From the NCBI GenBank assembly GCA_964558435.1, contig CAZLDZ010000001.1, positions 1 to 30,343 of the forward strand: a DNA stretch of 30,343 nucleotides, written 5' to 3'. The first letter of the stretch is position 1; each line of letters begins with the position of its first letter. A program made the translations under genes and the position numbers. The notes below the pieces were generated by a model. That model was not told the DNA's origin. It searched no databases and saw nothing but the letters and a program-made list of their open reading frames with translations. This document shows, piece after piece, positions 10,480-26,379 of this stretch. The DNA is from an uncultured bacterium. GTDB taxonomy: Bacteria; Chlamydiota; Chlamydiia; Chlamydiales; Rhabdochlamydiaceae.

Positions 10480-11935
10480 TATTCCTTATGAAGCATGGGA
10501 ACCCATCATCGGGCTCGAAATCCACGTCCAACTGAACACCCGCTCAAAACTTTTTAGCCCAGCGCCCAATCGCTTTGGGGATGAGCCCAACACAAACATC
10601 ACAGAGATCTGTACGGGACTGCCGGGAACTCTTCCCGTGCTCAATAAAGAAGCGGTTCAAAAAGCCATACGCTTTGGATGCGCTATCAACGCAGAAGTGC
10701 AACATTTCAGCACGTTCGACCGCAAATCCTACTTTTACCCCGACAGCCCCCGCAACTACCAGATCACCCAGTACGAGCAGCCCATCATTCTTGGTGGAAG
10801 CATCACGTGCGATGTCCAAGGAAAAACAAAACATTTTCTCATTGAACGCGCCCATCTAGAAGATGACGCCGGCATGCTGAAACATTTCAGCACCTTTGCC
10901 GGTGTCGATTATAACCGCGCAGGCGTCCCTCTTCTTGAAATCGTTTCCAAGCCCTGCATGCACGCGCCCAAAGATGCGAGCGCCTATGCCACGGCCATCC
11001 GTGCGATCATGCTCTATCTCGATGTTTCAGATTGCAATATGGAAGAAGGGTCCATTCGCTTTGACGTCAACGTCTCCGTGCGCCCCAAAGGAGAAAAAAA
11101 CCTGCGCACCAAAGTCGAAATCAAAAATATGAATTCCTTTGCGTACATGGAGATGGCAATTGAATCAGAAATCCGCCGCCAGATCCTCGCCTACACATCT
11201 CGTCCCCACGAAGATCCTGCACACATCATCACGCGGGGCACTTACCGCTTCGACCTCGAAAAAAAAGAAACCGTGCTCATGCGCCAAAAAGAAGAAGCCC
11301 AAGACTACCGCTACTTCCCCGAGCCCGACCTTGTCCCGCTCGTTCTCACACAAGCAGAAATTGACCGGATCCGCCGCGAGCTACCCGAGCTTCCCCACCA
11401 AAAATTCATGCGCTACACCACAGAGCTCAACCTCCCCGCATCCACCGCCTCCGTCCTGATCAATGACAAGCCCCTTTGTGACTACTTCGAAGACGCGCTC
11501 AAATATACACCCCATGCAAAAGCCCTTTCCAATTGGCTTGCCGTCGAGTTTACAGGACGCCTGAAAGAAAGCGGAAAAACCATCCAAGAATCGGGCATTC
11601 ACAGCGCACACATCGCCAAGCTCGTCAACCTCATCGATCAAGGCACTATCACAGGAAAAATTGCCAAAATGGTCGCCGATGAAATGGTCCTCCACCCCGG
11701 AAAAGACACAGAACAGATTGTCAAAGAGAATCCCGACTTCCAACCCTTACAAGACACCTCTTCCATCGAACCCATCGTCGACCAAGTCCTCGCCCAAAAC
11801 ACCCAATCCATCGCCGACTATAAGGCAGGAAAAGGCCGCGCTTTCGACTTCTTAGTCGGCCAAGTCATGAAAGCCACCAAAGGCAAGGCCTCGCCCGCCA
11901 TCGTCGGCAAACTACTCACCGAAAAACTAAAATAA
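10472..11935 (+). CDS. gatB: Amidotransferase subunit B
   Basis: IIGLEIHVQLNTRSKLF, RKSYFYPD, HLEDDAG, NRAGVPLLEIV, DYRYFPEPDL, FLVGQVMK. Confidence 0.98.
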   Translation: MSNIPYEAWEPIIGLEIHVQLNTRSKLFSPAPNRFGDEPNTNITEICTGLPGTLPVLNKEAVQKAIRFGCAINAEVQHFSTFDRKSYFYPDSPRNYQITQYEQPIILGGSITCDVQGKTKHFLIERAHLEDDAGMLKHFSTFAGVDYNRAGVPLLEIVSKPCMHAPKDASAYATAIRAIMLYLDVSDCNMEEGSIRFDVNVSVRPKGEKNLRTKVEIKNMNSFAYMEMAIESEIRRQILAYTSRPHEDPAHIITRGTYRFDLEKKETVLMRQKEEAQDYRYFPEPDLVPLVLTQAEIDRIRRELPELPHQKFMRYTTELNLPASTASVLINDKPLCDYFEDALKYTPHAKALSNWLAVEFTGRLKESGKTIQESGIHSAHIAKLVNLIDQGTITGKIAKMVADEMVLHPGKDTEQIVKENPDFQPLQDTSSIEPIVDQVLAQNTQSIADYKAGKGRAFDFLVGQVMKATKGKASPAIVGKLLTEKLK

Positions 11936-19873: not shown

Positions 19874-20968
19874 ATGTCAGGTAAATTAATATTAGACGCA
19901 GCTGGAGTATCTTTACCCCTAGCAGCACCAACAAGTTCAGCATCTGCTGCAGCTGAAAGCCCAAAGCTCAGCAAATGCAAAACATTGCAAAATGCTGTTT
20001 CAGCTATCCCTTCAAGAGTAGCAGCTTTTGATAAAAGCGCTCAAGAAGCAGTGAGCTGCTTTGGTCGTGAAACCATCACGAAGTTCTGGGAAAATCTTCC
20101 TAAAAATCTCGAGATCGGCTTCTCAAGAGTGACAAGCGGCCTCGGAGAGGTTAACGAAGAAGATAATACACGTTCATTCATCGAATTTTCACGCATTTTG
20201 GCCCCAGCAGCTATCGCTGACCGCCTTAGCTACATCCCTCTGCAACTCATGAACTTTATAGATGGATTGTGCTTTAAAAGAGGTGGACTCGGTCTAGATT
20301 TCTTGGCTAGGTTTCTCCGTGCTGACGGAATTACCCATGCTGGAATGTCAATAGTTCGAGCTATTTTTCTTTTAGCGTGTCTTATTGTTCGCGCAGTAAC
20401 ATTTGGAGTGATTGCTGCAGGTCTCTACATAGCAGCTACCCCATTTATCATTGTATTTGGGTTCTTAGTCGGTTGCTACAAAATTGTTAAAGCAGCACAG
20501 AGATACTTCGGAAACCACGAACTTCTCGAGCAGCTTTCTATGATTGCTGCACAGCAACAAGGCTTTGATGCTGACCATATGGCAGTCATTGCACAGTTTG
20601 CAGAAAGTGGCCAAAAACGTCTCAGAGCTAAATTGGATGCAGAAATTGCCCAAGCTGAGAAAGAAGAGCACGCTGCCCAGTTAAAAGCTGAGAAAGCTGA
20701 GCAAGCTGCTAAGCAAAAAGCTGAGCAAGCTAATCAGCCTGGCATTGGCGCAAGAGTCTCTGAATTCTTCTCTGGTCTCTTTGCAAGCAAAAAAGATGCT
20801 CCTAAAGCTTCTTTGAGCATAGTAGACATGCAGGATGTTCCTTCACGTCCTCATCTTCTTGAGCTTCCAGCTGATTCCGGCACAGGAACTGGTGTTTTAC
20901 CACCTGGTTCTGGTGACCGTGAAAGCAAAAGAAGCGGACCGCAGATTGGTGACGTTGGCGTCATCTAA
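19874..20968 (+). CDS. Inc-like protein (bilobed hydrophobic domain plus coiled coil)
   Basis: AAAGGAG SD; Ser/Ala-rich N-terminus; about 48-residue hydrophobic stretch GMSIVRAIFLLACLIV...FIIVFGFLVGC; then an AEK/AEQ-rich coiled coil. Confidence 0.8.
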   Translation: MSGKLILDAAGVSLPLAAPTSSASAAAESPKLSKCKTLQNAVSAIPSRVAAFDKSAQEAVSCFGRETITKFWENLPKNLEIGFSRVTSGLGEVNEEDNTRSFIEFSRILAPAAIADRLSYIPLQLMNFIDGLCFKRGGLGLDFLARFLRADGITHAGMSIVRAIFLLACLIVRAVTFGVIAAGLYIAATPFIIVFGFLVGCYKIVKAAQRYFGNHELLEQLSMIAAQQQGFDADHMAVIAQFAESGQKRLRAKLDAEIAQAEKEEHAAQLKAEKAEQAAKQKAEQANQPGIGARVSEFFSGLFASKKDAPKASLSIVDMQDVPSRPHLLELPADSGTGTGVLPPGSGDRESKRSGPQIGDVGVI

Positions 20969-20997
20969 TCCCACCTGCCGCTAGGCAGTAAGGATCG

Positions 20998-21032
20998 AAT
21001 GGCCATATTCGAAAGAATATGGCCATTTTTTT
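20998..21032 (+). terminator. Intrinsic terminator
   Basis: aatggccatattc-GAAA-gaatatggccatt stem (13 bp) followed by a T-run. Confidence 0.9.
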
Positions 21033-21033
21033 A

Positions 21034-21062
21034 TTGATTTAAATAATTATTATTGTTATAAT
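21034..21062 (+). promoter_or_regulatory. Sigma66/sigma70 promoter
   Basis: TTGATT-N17-TATAAT; ATG at 21075 implies a leader of about 6 nt without SD. Confidence 0.72.
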
Positions 21063-21074
21063 TAATTATTAATT

Positions 21075-22355
21075 ATGTCATATATTACTGAAGCAAATAG
21101 ATTATATCAGAAGCTGACGGAAGAATTGGTCGCTGTGCAAGCCAAGCGCGCCGATGATGGGATGCGCTATGCTTTGGACGGACAGGGCAAGCTCCGCTTG
21201 GAGCGGGTTCCTGAGAGCATTTGGGAGCGTTTCTGCGATTTCATTGATCGGCTTTGTTACGATCGTGAATTTCCCCTTCTGTGGAAGTTTAAAGAGATCG
21301 ACCTGAAGGTGAATGCCTATCTTGATTGTGAGACAGACCGGGCCCGGCTTGAGCAATTTTTACTGAACACCCATTCTTTAAATGAAATCTATTTAAATGC
21401 GGCGCATCTGCAGAAAAAGGCGGGCGTGAAGCGTTTGGTGATGGAGCCATCTAAAAGGGCTCAAGAGCTGATTTTAACGCCCCCTCATCGCAGACATCCG
21501 GACACCTATGCGGCACGAGCGCACATTCATCTTGCGCATGAGATTGAGGGTTCAGAGGTCCATTTTATGCTACACAATCGAGACCTCAACTGGGACGAGA
21601 ATCTGGGAGCCCCGAAAAACAAGACAGGATTTCTCTCGCTTACGCATGATTTTTCAGACACAACAACGATTTCTGCGTGTGCCAAACAGACACAAACAAT
21701 TCCCGCACATCAATACCATTTAACTGCCGAAATCGATGCTGTGGGCGGAATGACATTCAAAGAACAGGGCTTGTCGGAAGGCCCAAACATAACTCTAAAG
21801 AACACAGGATCAAGATATGTTGTGGTGCGTCTAAAAAATAGTGAAAATGAGAAAGATTTTATGGTTTATTCTCTCCCCCCCCACCAGCCGCGCGAGGTGG
21901 ATTTAGACCATTACGATACGATTGAGACTGTTGTGGAATTGGACGAGGAGTCTCTTCCTCTGTGTTTCAAAGCGGGGCGCTACAGCTGCTCTGTCAAGAG
22001 CGATGGAACTTTAACAACAGACGCCTGCCCGAAATATCGGGTGGAAACAGAAGCTACTGTTTCCCTCGACAGCCGCATATCGATCAAAAACCCTTCCTTT
22101 GAAGATGCGGTCATTTTCCCAACCTTGATTGGGAAAAAGGTATCTGTTGAGTTGCTCGAAACCTCAATCCCTCCAGGCTTCCTCGGCTCTTTAAGACAAA
22201 AAGCTCTTCTTGCTTCTGAAAATGCCAAGGCGCAAGCAGCGATACAGAAGGTGACTAGAGAAAAGGATGCCCAAATACGCCTAGCCTTTGAAAGCTTCTT
22301 GGGAATCCGCGTGATGGTCCCCGTGCTTCTTCATCGACAACTGTCTTTAGTTTAA
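21075..22355 (+). CDS. Hypothetical protein of unknown function
   Basis: 426-aa ORF with its own consensus promoter; helical N-terminus and beta-rich middle. Confidence 0.8.
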   Translation: MSYITEANRLYQKLTEELVAVQAKRADDGMRYALDGQGKLRLERVPESIWERFCDFIDRLCYDREFPLLWKFKEIDLKVNAYLDCETDRARLEQFLLNTHSLNEIYLNAAHLQKKAGVKRLVMEPSKRAQELILTPPHRRHPDTYAARAHIHLAHEIEGSEVHFMLHNRDLNWDENLGAPKNKTGFLSLTHDFSDTTTISACAKQTQTIPAHQYHLTAEIDAVGGMTFKEQGLSEGPNITLKNTGSRYVVVRLKNSENEKDFMVYSLPPHQPREVDLDHYDTIETVVELDEESLPLCFKAGRYSCSVKSDGTLTTDACPKYRVETEATVSLDSRISIKNPSFEDAVIFPTLIGKKVSVELLETSIPPGFLGSLRQKALLASENAKAQAAIQKVTREKDAQIRLAFESFLGIRVMVPVLLHRQLSLV

Positions 22356-22388
22356 AAACGAGTTCGTCAAAAGAATTAAGATTTTTTT

Positions 22389-22856
22389 ACCACAGAGACA
22401 AGAACCACAGAGAAAAATCATATTTTCAACCGACGCATGCCATCTCTCAAGGATTTTACATTAAAATTAATCAATAGACCAATTTTACAATTAGATAACT
22501 TTAAATAAGAAAGCAGCTGCGCATCATATATCTTTGAAAATCCAGAAACCGATTTAATTTCTATAATAACTTTACCTTCAACAACTAAATCAAGACGATA
22601 CCCACAATCGAGCATGACATCTTTGTAAAAAACTGGCAAAGGCTTTTGAGACTCCACAAATAAATTTCTTAACTTTAATTCATAAACCAAACAAGCTTCA
22701 TAAGCTGATTCTAAAAGCCCTGGACCTAATTCACGGTGCACTTCAATGGCTGCCCCGAGAATGTTTCCTGTTAAACTGTTACATTCTTCTATTTGTGTTG
22801 AAATATTTATTCTTCCTGCAGCCGCAGGCTGCCTCTGTGGTTCTTATCTCTGTGGT
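22389..22856. mobile_element. 468-bp unit: GxxExxY gene enclosed by 24-bp inverted repeats
   Basis: accacagagacaagaaccacagag (22389-22412) versus ctctgtggttcttatctctgtggt (22833-22856), 23/24 complementary; AT-rich interior. Mobility is inferred. Confidence 0.65.
22418..22741 (-). CDS. GxxExxY protein (PD-(D/E)XK nuclease superfamily); homology extends upstream to about 22790-22810
   Basis: LTGNILGAAIEVHRELGPGLLESAYEACL...YRLDLVVEGKVIIEIKSV...AQLLSYLKLSNCKIGLLINF. The frame is open up to 22843, but there is no ATG/GTG/TTG upstream of GTG 22741. Confidence 0.9.
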   Translation of the reverse strand: MHRELGPGLLESAYEACLVYELKLRNLFVESQKPLPVFYKDVMLDCGYRLDLVVEGKVIIEIKSVSGFSKIYDAQLLSYLKLSNCKIGLLINFNVKSLRDGMRRLKI

Positions 22857-22964
22857 TTCTCTTCTAAAAAACATTTAGCATCCAAATTTACGCAATGTTA
22901 AAATTTTAGTCTATAAAACGCCCACCTTCCCTTTATATGTGGGGGTGTGGTAGAGTTTGCCTTC

Positions 22965-23228
22965 ATGGCAAAACTCATCTTTAATCCGACAGGCGAAGAA
23001 AAGACCTTGGAAGACGGCTCTCCGATCCAGGAGGCGTGTGAAGAGGCGGGCGTTCCTTTTGCATGTACGGAAGGGGTGTGTGGCACGTGCGTGATCGAAG
23101 TGGAAGAGGGCATGCAAAATCTTTCGGAATTCACTCAAGAGGAAAAAGACTTTCTCGGCGACTTCAAAAATGAACGATTGGCTTGTCAATGCAAGATCCG
23201 CGGGGGCTGCGTAAAAATTAACTTTTAG
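22965..23228 (+). CDS. fdx: [2Fe-2S] ferredoxin
   Basis: GVPFACTEGVCGTC...RLACQC (CX4CX2C...C); likely start ATG 22965. Confidence 0.93.
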   Translation: MAKLIFNPTGEEKTLEDGSPIQEACEEAGVPFACTEGVCGTCVIEVEEGMQNLSEFTQEEKDFLGDFKNERLACQCKIRGGCVKINF

Positions 23229-23236
23229 GAGAATTC

Positions 23237-23803
23237 ATGGAGACGCAAGAAAAGATTCGAAGAGATATGACGATTGAAGAGATTCTGGGGGGCTTTCCGC
23301 AGAAGAGCCAGAAACTGGCGCAGGAAATCACCAATGCGGGTTTGCACTGTGTCGGGTGCCAGGCATCGACGTGGGAGACGCTGGAGGCGGGCATGCTGGG
23401 ACACGGCTTTCCTGAGGAAGAAATTGATGAGCTGGTGCGCCGTTTAAACGCAGTATTAGCGGAGCCTGTGGACACATCGACAATCCAGATGACGAAGCGT
23501 GCTGCAGAAAAATATCAGAGCATTTTGAAGGATGAAGGCCACGAAGGTTGGGGCCTGCGTTTTGGCGACAAAGCGGCGGGCTGCTCCGGTTTTGAGTATG
23601 TGCTCGATTATTCGGAAAAAGCGAGCGCAAACGATCAGGTGTTTTCTTCGCATGGTGTCGAGATCCATGTCGATCGCAAAATTGTCTCAAGACTTTTAGG
23701 TTCTGAAATCGACTATGTCGACGGCTTGCACGGTTCGGGCTTTAAAATCACAAACCCGAATGCAAAAGGCTCCTGCGGCTGCGGCAAATCCCAAAGCTAC
23801 TAA
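23237..23803 (+). CDS. DUF1858 domain fused to an A-type Fe-S carrier (IscA/HesB family)
   Basis: N-terminal DMTIEEIL...GLHCVGC...ETLEAG...HG (DUF1858); C-terminal GCSGFEY...NPNAKGSCGCGKS (A-type carrier). Confidence 0.9.
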   Translation: METQEKIRRDMTIEEILGGFPQKSQKLAQEITNAGLHCVGCQASTWETLEAGMLGHGFPEEEIDELVRRLNAVLAEPVDTSTIQMTKRAAEKYQSILKDEGHEGWGLRFGDKAAGCSGFEYVLDYSEKASANDQVFSSHGVEIHVDRKIVSRLLGSEIDYVDGLHGSGFKITNPNAKGSCGCGKSQSY

Positions 23804-23832
23804 TTTTATTAGCCACCAGAGAAAGAAAAAAT

Positions 23833-23943
23833 AACACGATCGGCTTCGCCGGCACGATCGCTGCTAGCGCAGCGGCAGGATGAGGAAAAATCATCGTGCC
23901 CGCTCCGTCAGGAGCGGATCGTGCCGGCGAAGCCGATCGTGTT
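23833..23943. repeat. 111-bp multi-branched palindrome (27-bp outer stem enclosing three hairpins)
   Basis: aacacgatcggcttcgccggcacgatc (23833-23859) is perfectly complementary to 23917-23943; internal hairpins at 23860-23873, 23874-23900 and 23901-23916. Confidence 0.92.
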
Positions 23944-23973
23944 CATCTTGTTTTCTCTTATTTTTTAGTTTGT

Positions 23974-24003
23974 TTGCATTAATTCTCTGATACTCTCTAT
24001 ACT
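23974..24003 (+). promoter_or_regulatory. Putative bamA operon promoter
   Basis: TTGCAT-N18-TATACT, 15 nt upstream of ATG 24019. Confidence 0.5.
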
Positions 24004-24018
24004 TGGCAAACATTTTGT

Positions 24019-26379
24019 ATGGGAAAATCCTCGATCCGCTGGTTTTCTATTTTCTTCTTCACGTGTGCTCCCATTGCGCAGCTGCCTGTGCATGCGGCGC
24101 CGGTGGAGGCGTATGAAGAGCGGCCGGTGGCGAAGATCGATGCCATTCTTGAGAACCCACCTCCGCACTACACGTTTGATTCCAAAACAGTTGTTTCAAA
24201 AATGAAGACGAAGATTGGGGATCCTTTTTCCCAATCCATTTTTGATGCGGATTTGAAAGCGCTATCAGAAGAATACGACAGAATTGAGCCGTCAGTCGAG
24301 GTCATGAATGGGGAAATTTACATCACGGTGAAGTTGTGGCCAAGGCCCCAGATTCGCGCAATCAAGTGGGTGGGAAACCAACATCTCAAAACGAAAGCTC
24401 TGAGAAAAGAGCTCGGGATTAAACCGTCATCGACTTTTAACCGTCCTGCATTCAACAAGGCTTTTAACAAAGTCAAAGCGCTCTACATCAAAAAGGGCTA
24501 TTTTGAATCGCAACTGAGCTACCGCGTAATTCCCGATCCCAAAACCAATGAAGTGGAGATTGAAATCGAAGTGCACGAGGGGCGTTCGGGCAAAATTTCC
24601 GACATTGAATTTAAGGGATTTTCTTCGAGTGAAAAAAGCGATCTTCTGGAGATGATCCGCACAAAAAAATACAATCTTCTGACGAGCTGGTTTTTTGGGA
24701 CAGGGATCTACAACGAAGAAATGCTCGAGCAAGACAACTTGATCATCTCAGAGTATCTGCAGAATCGAGGCTACGCGGACGCCAAAGTCGATGTGCAAAT
24801 TTTAGAGGCTCCCACGCAGGGAAAAATCATCATCGAGATCACAGCTGAGCACGGACCGATTTTCCATTTTGGCGAAGTGACTTTTGAAGGAAATACTCTG
24901 TTTACAGATGAGGAGATTGAAAAACGTTTTCTTGTGCACCCTGAGCAGCACTATTCTCCCGAAAATCTGCGCGAGACGGCGCAAGCGATTAAAGATTTGT
25001 ACGGACGAAAAGGCTACATCGAAGCAAGCGTGCAGTACGACACGCAACTTGTGGAAAATGAGCCGATCTACAACGTGCACTTTAAAATCGAAGAGGGAGA
25101 GCAGTACAAGATCGGCATGATCCGCGTGATCGGAAACGTCCAGACACAGGCGCGTGTGGTTTTGCATGAGTCGCTCTTAATCCCCGGTGAGACTTTTGAT
25201 TCGGCAAAACTCAAGGCTACGCAGACCCGCTTAGAAAGCATGGGGTATTTTAAAAAAGTGAACGTCTACGCGGTGCGCACCCAAGACGACCAATCTCTTG
25301 GCGAAAATTACCGCGATGTCTTCATTGAAGTCGAAGAAGCCCACACGGGAAATGTCAGCCTTTTTGCAGGGTTTAGCTCAGCGGACAATATTTTCGGGGG
25401 GCTTGATATCTCTGAAAACAACTTCAACTACAAAGGACTTTTCCAAATCTTTAGTAAAGGGGTCGCTGCAGTACGCGGGGGCGGCGAATACGCCCACGCT
25501 CGTTTAAACTTCGGTGCCAAACAAAGAACCTACACTCTCTCTTGGCTGACCCCGTACTTTAAAGATACGCTCTGGCGCGTGGGTTTTACAGGTGAACAGG
25601 GCATTAGTAGTTTGCAGTCGGACGATTATGAGATCTGGACGCTGGGGGCTACTTTCTACGCTTCTTACCCACTGACCCCCTACTGGACATTTGGAACCAA
25701 ATACCGAATCAAAGACGCAAATATCCACATCTCAGGCAAGGTGAGCCAAGCCGAACGTCAGCAAGAGCAAAACAGCGGCCTAATCTCTGCAGCTTCGGTG
25801 TCGATGAATTACGATTCGACCGACAGCGCGCTAAAACCCCATCGAGGCCTGCGTTCCTTTATTGAGGGGGAATTTGCGGGGGTGGGCGGTGATTTTAGCT
25901 TCTTGCGCCTCGGTTACATCAACAGTTACTACCAGCCTCTTTGGTCACGCGGCGTTCTGAAATACCGCTGGGAGTTCCGCTTCATCCAGCCGATTCTGTG
26001 GACCCCGAAGTCTAAAGACATTCCTTTAAGTGAACGCTTCTTCCTCGGCGGAGAAAACTCTGTACGCGGTTACGTCCCCTTCGATTTGGGTCCCCACTTC
26101 CCCGGCGGTGATCCCACAGGGGGCATCTCCTCTACACTCTTTTCTTTAGAGTACCTGCAAGAAATTTTTAGTTTTATGGATGTATTTGTATTTATCGATG
26201 CCGGTTCGGTATCCTTAAATCGATTTGAATTTGGACCCTACAATATGAGCTATGGTATCGGCAGCAGGCTTTCTCTCTTGAACCGCGTTCCGTTCACCTT
26301 GGGTTACGGGATTCCTGTGAACCCCGATTTCCATGGTCAAGTCAGAAACTTTTTCTTCCAGATGGGAGGACAATTTTAA
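24019..26379 (+). CDS. bamA: Outer membrane protein assembly factor BamA
   Basis: POTRA repeats, ERFFLGGENSVRGY, FIDAG, C-terminal FFFQMGGQF; followed by skp-lpxD. Confidence 0.96.
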   Translation: MGKSSIRWFSIFFFTCAPIAQLPVHAAPVEAYEERPVAKIDAILENPPPHYTFDSKTVVSKMKTKIGDPFSQSIFDADLKALSEEYDRIEPSVEVMNGEIYITVKLWPRPQIRAIKWVGNQHLKTKALRKELGIKPSSTFNRPAFNKAFNKVKALYIKKGYFESQLSYRVIPDPKTNEVEIEIEVHEGRSGKISDIEFKGFSSSEKSDLLEMIRTKKYNLLTSWFFGTGIYNEEMLEQDNLIISEYLQNRGYADAKVDVQILEAPTQGKIIIEITAEHGPIFHFGEVTFEGNTLFTDEEIEKRFLVHPEQHYSPENLRETAQAIKDLYGRKGYIEASVQYDTQLVENEPIYNVHFKIEEGEQYKIGMIRVIGNVQTQARVVLHESLLIPGETFDSAKLKATQTRLESMGYFKKVNVYAVRTQDDQSLGENYRDVFIEVEEAHTGNVSLFAGFSSADNIFGGLDISENNFNYKGLFQIFSKGVAAVRGGGEYAHARLNFGAKQRTYTLSWLTPYFKDTLWRVGFTGEQGISSLQSDDYEIWTLGATFYASYPLTPYWTFGTKYRIKDANIHISGKVSQAERQQEQNSGLISAASVSMNYDSTDSALKPHRGLRSFIEGEFAGVGGDFSFLRLGYINSYYQPLWSRGVLKYRWEFRFIQPILWTPKSKDIPLSERFFLGGENSVRGYVPFDLGPHFPGGDPTGGISSTLFSLEYLQEIFSFMDVFVFIDAGSVSLNRFEFGPYNMSYGIGSRLSLLNRVPFTLGYGIPVNPDFHGQVRNFFFQMGGQF

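Follow-up and report, generated by a model that had tools for sequence, protein, structure and literature searches.

The window analyzed here, a 30,343-nt stretch of a chlamydial genome, contains at 22389-22856 one small gene of the GxxExxY (PDDEXK_3) family enclosed by two inverted copies of a 24-nt sequence. Within a genome-wide family of "word-hairpin" repeats, this locus alone carries a gene, and its parts are as follows:

22389 to 22412, plus strand: arm flanking the gene's 3' end, ACCACAGAG-ACAAGA-ACCACAGAG, one of 61 genomic copies of the 24-nt module.
22413 to 22417, no strand: A/T spacer of 5 nt between arm and stop codon, read from the sequence.
22418 to 22741, minus strand: ORF of 107 aa that begins at GTG 22741, the first canonical start, and ends with the stop codon at 22418-22420; the first ~12 residues of the conserved domain are missing from it.
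22430 to 22777, minus strand: PDDEXK_3/GxxExxY domain, model positions 2-116 of 117, with the GxxExxY motif and D...E-x-K core intact and no internal stop.
22802 to 22817, minus strand: candidate non-canonical start, an AGGAAG (22817-22812) followed after 7 nt by an in-frame ATT (22804-22802).
22818 to 22832, minus strand: subterminal mini-hairpin GCAGCCTGCGGCTGC (gcagcc-gca-ggctgc), 15 nt, just inside the right arm.
22833 to 22856, minus strand: arm flanking the gene's 5' end, which reads ACCACAGAG-ATAAGA-ACCACAGAG on the gene strand.
22872 to 22874, minus strand: ATG in the +1 frame, which reads the arm as ..TTE..TTE.., as in some homologs, and ends after 31 codons.

Each arm consists of two words set in a 15-nt register (ACCACAGAG-N6-ACCACAGAG), and a repeat search of the window agrees with the initial annotation that the two arms are inverted, 24 nt long and complementary at 23 of 24 positions (96%), with 420 nt between them. 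Other details of that first description were borne out as well: 5 nt separate the stop codon and the left arm, the right arm stops 92 nt short of the GTG, on its upstream side (about 90 bp had been given), a small hairpin is present inside the right arm, and the sole cargo is an AT-rich GxxExxY gene with a GC content of 34%, relative to 47-50% in the flanking genes and 46% across the genome. The ACCACAGAG 9-mer occurs five times in the window against 0.11 expected, a count that 0 of 100 shuffled sequences reached, and the chance that arms would bracket a random 420-nt segment is ~6e-6. The arms pair in the predicted single-strand fold (z -5.1), consistent with an earlier suggestion of pairing in RNA or single-stranded DNA. 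A scan for sigma-70 promoters and terminators around the element returned promoters at a level not above shuffled sequence.

A solitary ACCACAGAG 9-mer lies outside any arm at 11417-11425, in a region where the initial annotation noted a MITE and a HigBA pair. To the left of the element, a 426-aa ORF (21075-22355) lacks any Pfam match, and only one congener has a counterpart to it, at 25% identity. On the other side (22857-22946), four of five congeners encode a 72-75-aa coiled-coil-like protein (MENN..LLSK..LESKVD..; loci L014-L018) just upstream of the ferredoxin gene; this gene was not found in the present 85%-complete assembly, where the cassette takes its place. An exact-protein look-up of the ferredoxin neighbor matched the source sample alone.

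The arms are not confined to this locus. In the host assembly (1.22 Mb, 177 contigs, 85% complete), the 9-mer is present in 125 copies relative to 8.5 expected, and the 24-mer ACCACAGAG-AYAAGA-ACCACAGAG in 61 copies with at most one mismatch. These form 19 inward-facing pairs, 18 of which are gene-less elements of 59-199 nt, and six outward-facing pairs; the other arms are single, half-paired or at contig ends. Alignment of the 61 arms yields 1.9-2.0 bits at each position except the spacer Y and no more than 0.8 bits outside, so the 24-nt module is sharply bounded. The interiors, in turn, differ in length and are without common sequence. Some are loops of 11-40 nt, seven contain a palindrome of ATGATA-type words, at least three a composite palindrome of CAGGAT and CACGATC words, and one the gene. 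Variants of the subterminal GCAGCYTGCRGCTGC hairpin lie just inside one arm in five gene-less elements (contigs C2, C6, C88, C113 and C23), and the stretch that these share with the gene-bearing copy is 15-25 nt long. The elements are intergenic, in both orientations relative to neighboring genes; 12 of them lie 7-36 nt after a stop codon, and the elements are often followed by T runs. No target duplication was found at 25 local junction pairs.

The initial annotation described the arms as terminal inverted repeats of a candidate minimal mobile element. A reading as private ends of a minimal transposon is not supported, given their 61 copies, their unrelated interiors, the existence of single arms and their nesting with other word palindromes. 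Near-identical arms around unrelated interiors are not what simple copy-and-paste movement of entire elements would leave; single arms and half elements exist as well. That the 24-mer is almost perfectly conserved around such interiors indicates constraint on, or homogenization of, the arm itself, and recognition by the nuclease would supply it.

The repeats are also embedded in a wider mosaic. The motif CGTGCCCGTGCCCGAAAATTYAAGAAA abuts the outer side of many arms (contigs C2, C6, C8, C49, C54, C64, C88, C141, C155 and C158), and CGTGCCCG is present in 87 copies relative to 23 expected; the repeats are mosaics and not simple two-arm elements. Elsewhere in the window, a "four-way-junction palindrome" at 23833-23943 is built of CACGATC and CAGGAT-type words, and the same module fills some CACAGAG hairpin interiors (C2, C6, C158 and C32). 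It may represent a second, gene-less word family in this genome, since the GxxExxY gene of one congener (G001) has arms made of CAGGAT words, like some of the local interiors. Many local arms lie at contig ends, and most close homologs of the gene are on contigs of 1-2 kb; the word arrays explain common intergenic palindromes that break metagenome assemblies.

The gene between the arms is the only PF13366 gene in this assembly. Its product matches PF13366 (E 2.6e-41, 141.1 bits, cut-off 22), which is its only Pfam match, and TIGR04256 (E 9.6e-44, 148.5 bits, cut-off 35). The residues G22, E27, D67, E77 and K79, invariant in an alignment of 76 sequences, are all present, with the motif reading GLLESAY, and the D...E-x-K core is as intact as first described. 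An AlphaFold2 model (pLDDT 95.6) features a restriction-endonuclease-like alpha-beta-beta-beta-alpha-beta core; together with the profile matches, it agrees with the earlier assignment to the PD-(D/E)XK superfamily. The nearest solved chains are 3ijm (Z 8.2), Cas4 SSO0001 (Z 7.9), the BpuSI nuclease domain (Z 7.9) and Hjc (Z 7.1), and structural neighbors of the model at Z 7-8 are generic for the PD-(D/E)XK fold. A sequence search of the PDB with the product returned no match.

The beginning of the gene is less regular than its core. The GTG at 22741 and the stop codon of the initially annotated gene are both present, but the Pfam match begins ~12 codons upstream of that GTG. There is no ATG, GTG or TTG in frame between the domain and TAA 22846-22844; the in-frame reading passes through the inner arm word and meets this TAA, which results from the T variant of the arm spacer. 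One base separates the frame of the ATG at 22874-22872 from that of the nuclease. Homologs at 70-80% identity measure 134-142 aa, with 15-25 residues ahead of the domain, and several translate their arm as ..TTE..TE.. or ..PQR... Three options remain for the local gene: a start at ATT 22804-22802, a truncated product from the GTG, or a start that has just been lost. Use of the ATT is possible and, judging from the reading frame, could yield a protein of 128 aa, the usual length for the family.

The lack of a canonical start before the domain and the TAA in the arm mean that the local gene may be truncated or dying. The locus could accordingly be read as a decaying relic, in which the gene is on its way to becoming a pseudogene and unrelated host processes keep or spread the 61 arms. 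Internal stops in six of 92 homolog genes are compatible with such decay, as is a congener (G004) with gene-less CACAGAG hairpins whose own gene, framed by CACCGAG words, is broken. We nonetheless give this reading little probability: the 123-codon domain is without defect and keeps every invariant residue, the Shine-Dalgarno-like AGGAAG and in-frame ATT could provide a start, and the arms are nearly free of mutation, which indicates recent activity or constraint.

The association between gene and repeat extends far beyond this genome. The family comprises 21,828 clusters at 50% identity (E <= 0.001). A profile scan with one genome per species gave 80 loci, 79 of them usable for arm alignment, from at least ten bacterial phyla and two archaea; carriers include Verrucomicrobiota, Chloroflexota, Acidobacteriota, Bacteroidota, Cyanobacteria, Planctomycetota, Desulfobacterota, Proteobacteria and Patescibacteria, with cultured strains such as Flavobacterium frigidimaris DSM 15937 and Lacihabitans soyangensis KCTC 23259 among them. 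We scored inverted repeats by local alignment of the upstream flank with the reverse complement of the downstream flank, using flanks displaced by 900 nt as controls. A score of at least 14 was reached at 60 of 79 loci and at none of 148 controls. The CACAGAG-type inverted repeats that the initial annotation mentioned beside other GxxExxY genes are therefore real and general, and a census of the homologs' flanks finds them enriched. The aligned arms are arrays of CRCNRAG words, with outer ends that are usually TTAACC or TTCACC. Two or more words are present on both sides of the gene at 63 of 92 loci (1 of 172 controls), and a terminal ACC-RCNRAG word on both sides at 41 of 92 (0 of 171 controls). 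CACAGAG is the commonest word (179), followed by CGCAGAG, CACAAAG, CACGGAG and CGCAAAG. Across 77 loci, mutual information between protein and words was low and followed taxonomy, with no clear covariation. Some family members (P0121-P0131) are 260-295 aa long with two tandem GxxExxY domains, an arrangement that hints at a dimeric working unit. A phage genome collection contained no family match and plasmids accounted for eight records, mostly megaplasmids, which argues that neither phages nor plasmids are the main carriers.

These data also bear on the possibility that the element acts at the RNA level, with the arms forming a long transcript stem (a terminator, a stabilizer or an RNase III site, as in ORF-bearing 23S rRNA intervening sequences) and the gene as a passenger. 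The predicted pairing of the arms and the position of the elements shortly after stop codons, often next to T runs, are in keeping with a transcript stem. So is the coding behavior of the words: they are free of stop codons in all frames, and many homologs translate them at their N-terminus. Yet a transcript stem would leave unexplained why the same protein family accompanies the words across phyla and co-occurs with them among relatives, the elements lie in both orientations with respect to neighboring genes, and the words are conserved as sequence and not for pairing alone. We therefore regard a purely RNA-level role as quite improbable.

Closer to the host, the exact arm was not found in 40 relatives, and the one near-match adjoins the GxxExxY gene of a congener (G003). 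All five congeners carry GxxExxY genes, which are non-syntenic and mutually 28-68% identical. The local copy shares 38-64% identity with those of its congeners, but 70-75% with copies from the order's other families and 67-70% with copies from a deltaproteobacterium, an Anaerolineales bacterium, a Verrucomicrobiae bacterium and an archaeon. Inverted arrays, each with two to four words (CACAGAG, CACCGAG, CGCAGAG or CACGGAG) at a period of 9-10 nt, enclose the gene at 10 of 11 of the relatives' loci.

Gene and arrays also co-occur from genome to genome. Of 19 relatives with a PF13366 match, 13 contain tandem CACAGAG arrays of at least four words, as does one of the 22 without (Fisher p 2.6e-5, with relatives that are not independent of one another); the reversed control pattern is found in none. 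The sole array-bearing relative without the gene is a genome that is 58% complete. Six carriers of the gene have no CACAGAG arrays: two (G002 and G039) use other words, two (G010 and G029) harbor gene fragments only, and two (G012 and G015) have longer matches.

Two relatives illustrate how such elements are arranged and copied. In congener G004, a local-type arm with a 7-nt spacer is gene-less, and CACAGAG hairpins lie exactly in the loop of CACCGAG-word hairpins (L111, L112 and L115). Nesting thus goes both ways, as CACAGAG arms form the outer shell in the window's genome and the inner one in G004. The second relative, G034, contains 67 matches, ~40 of which are an identical 3' fragment (model positions 66-117) between intact arms. 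Its cassettes, complete or internally deleted, lie directly after the stop codon of an IS5-like transposase (L022-L028). We considered this copy number as evidence that the cassette is self-mobile and rejected it, because the cassette has been copied along with the IS5-like element; a high gene copy number is, given this hitch-hiking, not evidence of the cassette's own movement.

The initial annotation proposed a minimal mobile element and pointed to empty sites and target duplications as signs of one. For the local locus, contigs from four public metagenome runs were compared with positions 20500-24500, and none joins the true flanks; every contig joint across the element is another gene-less copy of the arm. 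At the orthologous site of the five congeners, clean borders are unreadable: coding DNA is ~72% identical, the left neighbor is not conserved, and a 72-aa gene is present instead. Because these congeners are too divergent and the source metagenomes offer neither an empty allele nor an excision product, we turned to cassettes from cultured Flavobacterium genomes, which provide two site series (L089 for site 1 and L060 for site 2).

At site 1, arms and gene occupy 488 nt between two co-directional genes in G042, G096 (88% identical) and G163 (76%). A solo right-arm relic is all that G056, G049 and G132 retain, and G063 keeps one from the left arm, while G048 and G116 are pristine, with 4-7 nt from the stop codon to the next ATG. 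The TTAACC of the left arm overlaps the upstream stop codon. The gene is more similar between genomes than its flanks (96% vs 89-94% of nucleotides, and 83% vs 74-75%), and synonymous changes exceed non-synonymous ones by 10 to 4 and 41 to 13 codons. The gene at site 1 is under purifying selection, and a cassette of this kind can persist for long under such selection.

At site 2, G041, G124, G099, G133 and G128 carry a cassette that has TTAACC and GGTTAA as its bounds, and a gene-less hairpin of ~60 nt replaces it in six other species (G126, G068, G058, G156, G055 and G142). In G126, the right arm keeps the word order of the cassette (CCGCAARG, CGCTAAG, CRCAAAG), and G072 retains the last 12 nt of the right arm only. 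Gene-less hairpins can arise in place by gene loss, as seems to have occurred here, and gene-less copies therefore need not be products of transposition. In another genome (G051, L152), the same junction harbors a different hairpin made of CGCTGAT and ATCCGT word types. Several families of word hairpins may use stop-to-start junctions in general as landing sites. A natural comparison of close Flavobacterium species with and without the gene was also attempted and failed, as all of them carry other copies.

At both Flavobacterium sites, the inserted unit comprises the arms together with the gene and is delimited by the outer ends of the arms. The idea of a minimal mobile element holds to that extent. 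Pristine junctions exist in Flavobacterium, but no empty allele of the local locus was recovered from the four runs or five congeners, and the arm itself is a 61-copy module. Nor is there a target duplication at either Flavobacterium site (including full vs pristine alleles at site 1), any more than at the local junctions; the TTAA at either end of the Flavobacterium cassettes belongs to the arm palindrome.

Could the locus be a minimal autonomous transposon, with the arms as terminal inverted repeats, the nuclease as transposase, a 468-bp unit that moves whole, and the short elements as MITEs? Inverted arms around a single gene, the same arms on gene-less pairs, the subterminal hairpin common to the gene-bearing copy and five gene-less pairs, and unit-level presence and absence in Flavobacterium would all fit. 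We still consider it unlikely. No junction examined has a target duplication, and the short elements have interiors related neither to one another nor to the gene, which sets them apart from MITEs that descend from a master copy. Arms also exist singly and nested inside or around other word palindromes, and there is usually one gene copy per genome, kept at one site across species. To our knowledge, moreover, no PD-(D/E)XK protein acts as a lone transposase.

Alternatively, the hairpins may have come first and the gene later, by a homing-type invasion in which the nuclease cuts the center of an empty hairpin and repair from a filled copy puts the gene in the loop, the arms being both target and homology and not belonging to the element. 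PD-(D/E)XK homing endonucleases exist (I-Ssp6803I), and the gene always occupies the loop position of a hairpin type that is also found empty. Loops are clearly favored landing sites, as other palindromes nest there (types A and B in CACAGAG arms, and CACAGAG in the CACCGAG hairpins of G004). Occupancy, however, is low, with one of ~30 hairpins filled here and typically one to eight in other genomes; arms of 24-35 bp are short for recombinational repair; and gene and arms arrive jointly at sites that are pristine in sister species, some without any hairpin. This order of events, too, seems improbable to us.

We favor, at roughly even chances, a nuclease-repeat partnership of the REP/RAYT or Ssn/SRM kind, in which the putative nuclease acts on its own word arrays. 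Phased CRCNRAG words, both those that flank its gene and those of gene-less copies, would be recognized and cut by the nuclease, probably once the arms have folded back into a hairpin or cruciform. Words recur every 9-10 nt in most genomes and every 15 nt here, a phasing which suggests that several protomers could sit on one face of the helix or stem. Cutting would insert, spread or maintain the arms, and the gene would move along with them in a small cassette whose landing places are intergenic gaps directly behind stop codons. The reaction that follows recognition may be arm insertion, hairpin copying, homing of the gene into loops or an Ssn-like restriction of single-stranded DNA. We infer binding, cleavage, action in trans on gene-less copies and any movement in this genome.

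Two established systems offer the closest parallels. In REP/REPIN-RAYT systems (PMC3116915, PMC3337134, PMC5581495), as here, one enzyme gene is present per repeat family and is flanked by the inverted repeat, and tens of gene-less inverted doublets occupy intergenic DNA near gene ends with no target duplication. A RAYT gene can also persist at one site through speciation, and the Flavobacterium cassette does so across 3-5 species. On single-copy vertical inheritance, a REPIN/RAYT trait, the observations point both ways: the gene is in single copy here, yet non-syntenic and divergent among the chlamydial congeners, and the cassette recurs across many phyla. The enzyme is a 125-aa PD-(D/E)XK nuclease rather than a Y1 HUH (IS200/IS605-like) transposase, and phased arrays of 7-nt words stand in place of one imperfect palindrome headed by GTAG.

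Hairpin repeats of the genome flank the genes for Ssn nucleases, co-occur with them and serve as cleavage sites for the enzymes, whose cutting of single-stranded DNA and effect on transformation have been shown experimentally (Chenal et al. 2025, PMC11893778). The resemblance lies in a small nuclease gene flanked on both sides by a genome-dispersed hairpin repeat (NTS/SRM hairpins in the Ssn case) and in the co-occurrence of gene and repeat across phyla, represented here by the 60 of 79 loci vs 0 of 148 controls and by the 13 of 19 vs one of 22 relatives. Ssn enzymes belong to the GIY-YIG family, in contrast to the PD-(D/E)XK fold here, and the repeat architecture differs; cleavage is experimental there, whereas GxxExxY proteins are known from sequence and predicted structure. 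Although we liken the present system to both, its nuclease is neither of the enzymes that define them.

Other comparisons are more partial. MITEs and autonomous transposons with terminal inverted repeats likewise combine short inverted ends with a gene-bearing copy beside many short gene-less ones; the present elements depart from them in the absence of target duplications, in their unrelated interiors, single arms and nesting, and in having no known transposase family. Enterobacterial BIMEs are mosaics of palindromic units and other motifs, and IS1397 and ISKpn1 insert in REP loops. By description, BIMEs and these insertion sequences resemble the present elements as modular mosaics of several repeat types in alternating orientation at gene ends, with palindrome loops as landing sites, but their sequences and associated enzyme are unrelated. 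Also by description, ORF-bearing 23S rRNA intervening sequences place a small ORF in the loop of a long inverted repeat, yet the loci here lie between protein genes and the ORF is from another family.

The literature that we searched contained no published description of a GxxExxY nuclease with a word-hairpin system; where GxxExxY, PDDEXK_3 or PF13366 appeared, the function was given as unknown or the name merely cited. New here are the sharp 24-nt delimitation of the arm, its 15-nt register, the missing start codon, the two-way nesting, the caveat from IS5 hitch-hiking, and the two Flavobacterium site series with estimates of selection.

For the very large PDDEXK_3/GxxExxY family, the word arrays represent a concrete candidate substrate. 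A broader proposal, which we offer tentatively and judge possible rather than probable, is that GxxExxY proteins are sequence- and structure-specific nucleases that read phased CRCNRAG words on folded DNA and drive an unnamed class of prokaryotic mobile DNA without DDE, HUH, serine or tyrosine chemistry. The gene-less hairpins after stop codons in a dozen or more bacterial phyla and some archaea would belong to that class. As small site-specific nucleases, GxxExxY proteins could also be candidates for tools. If the nuclease acts on the arrays, it would constitute a third enzyme-repeat partnership, independent of REP/RAYT and Ssn/SRM, and would suggest that such partnerships are general in prokaryotic genomes.
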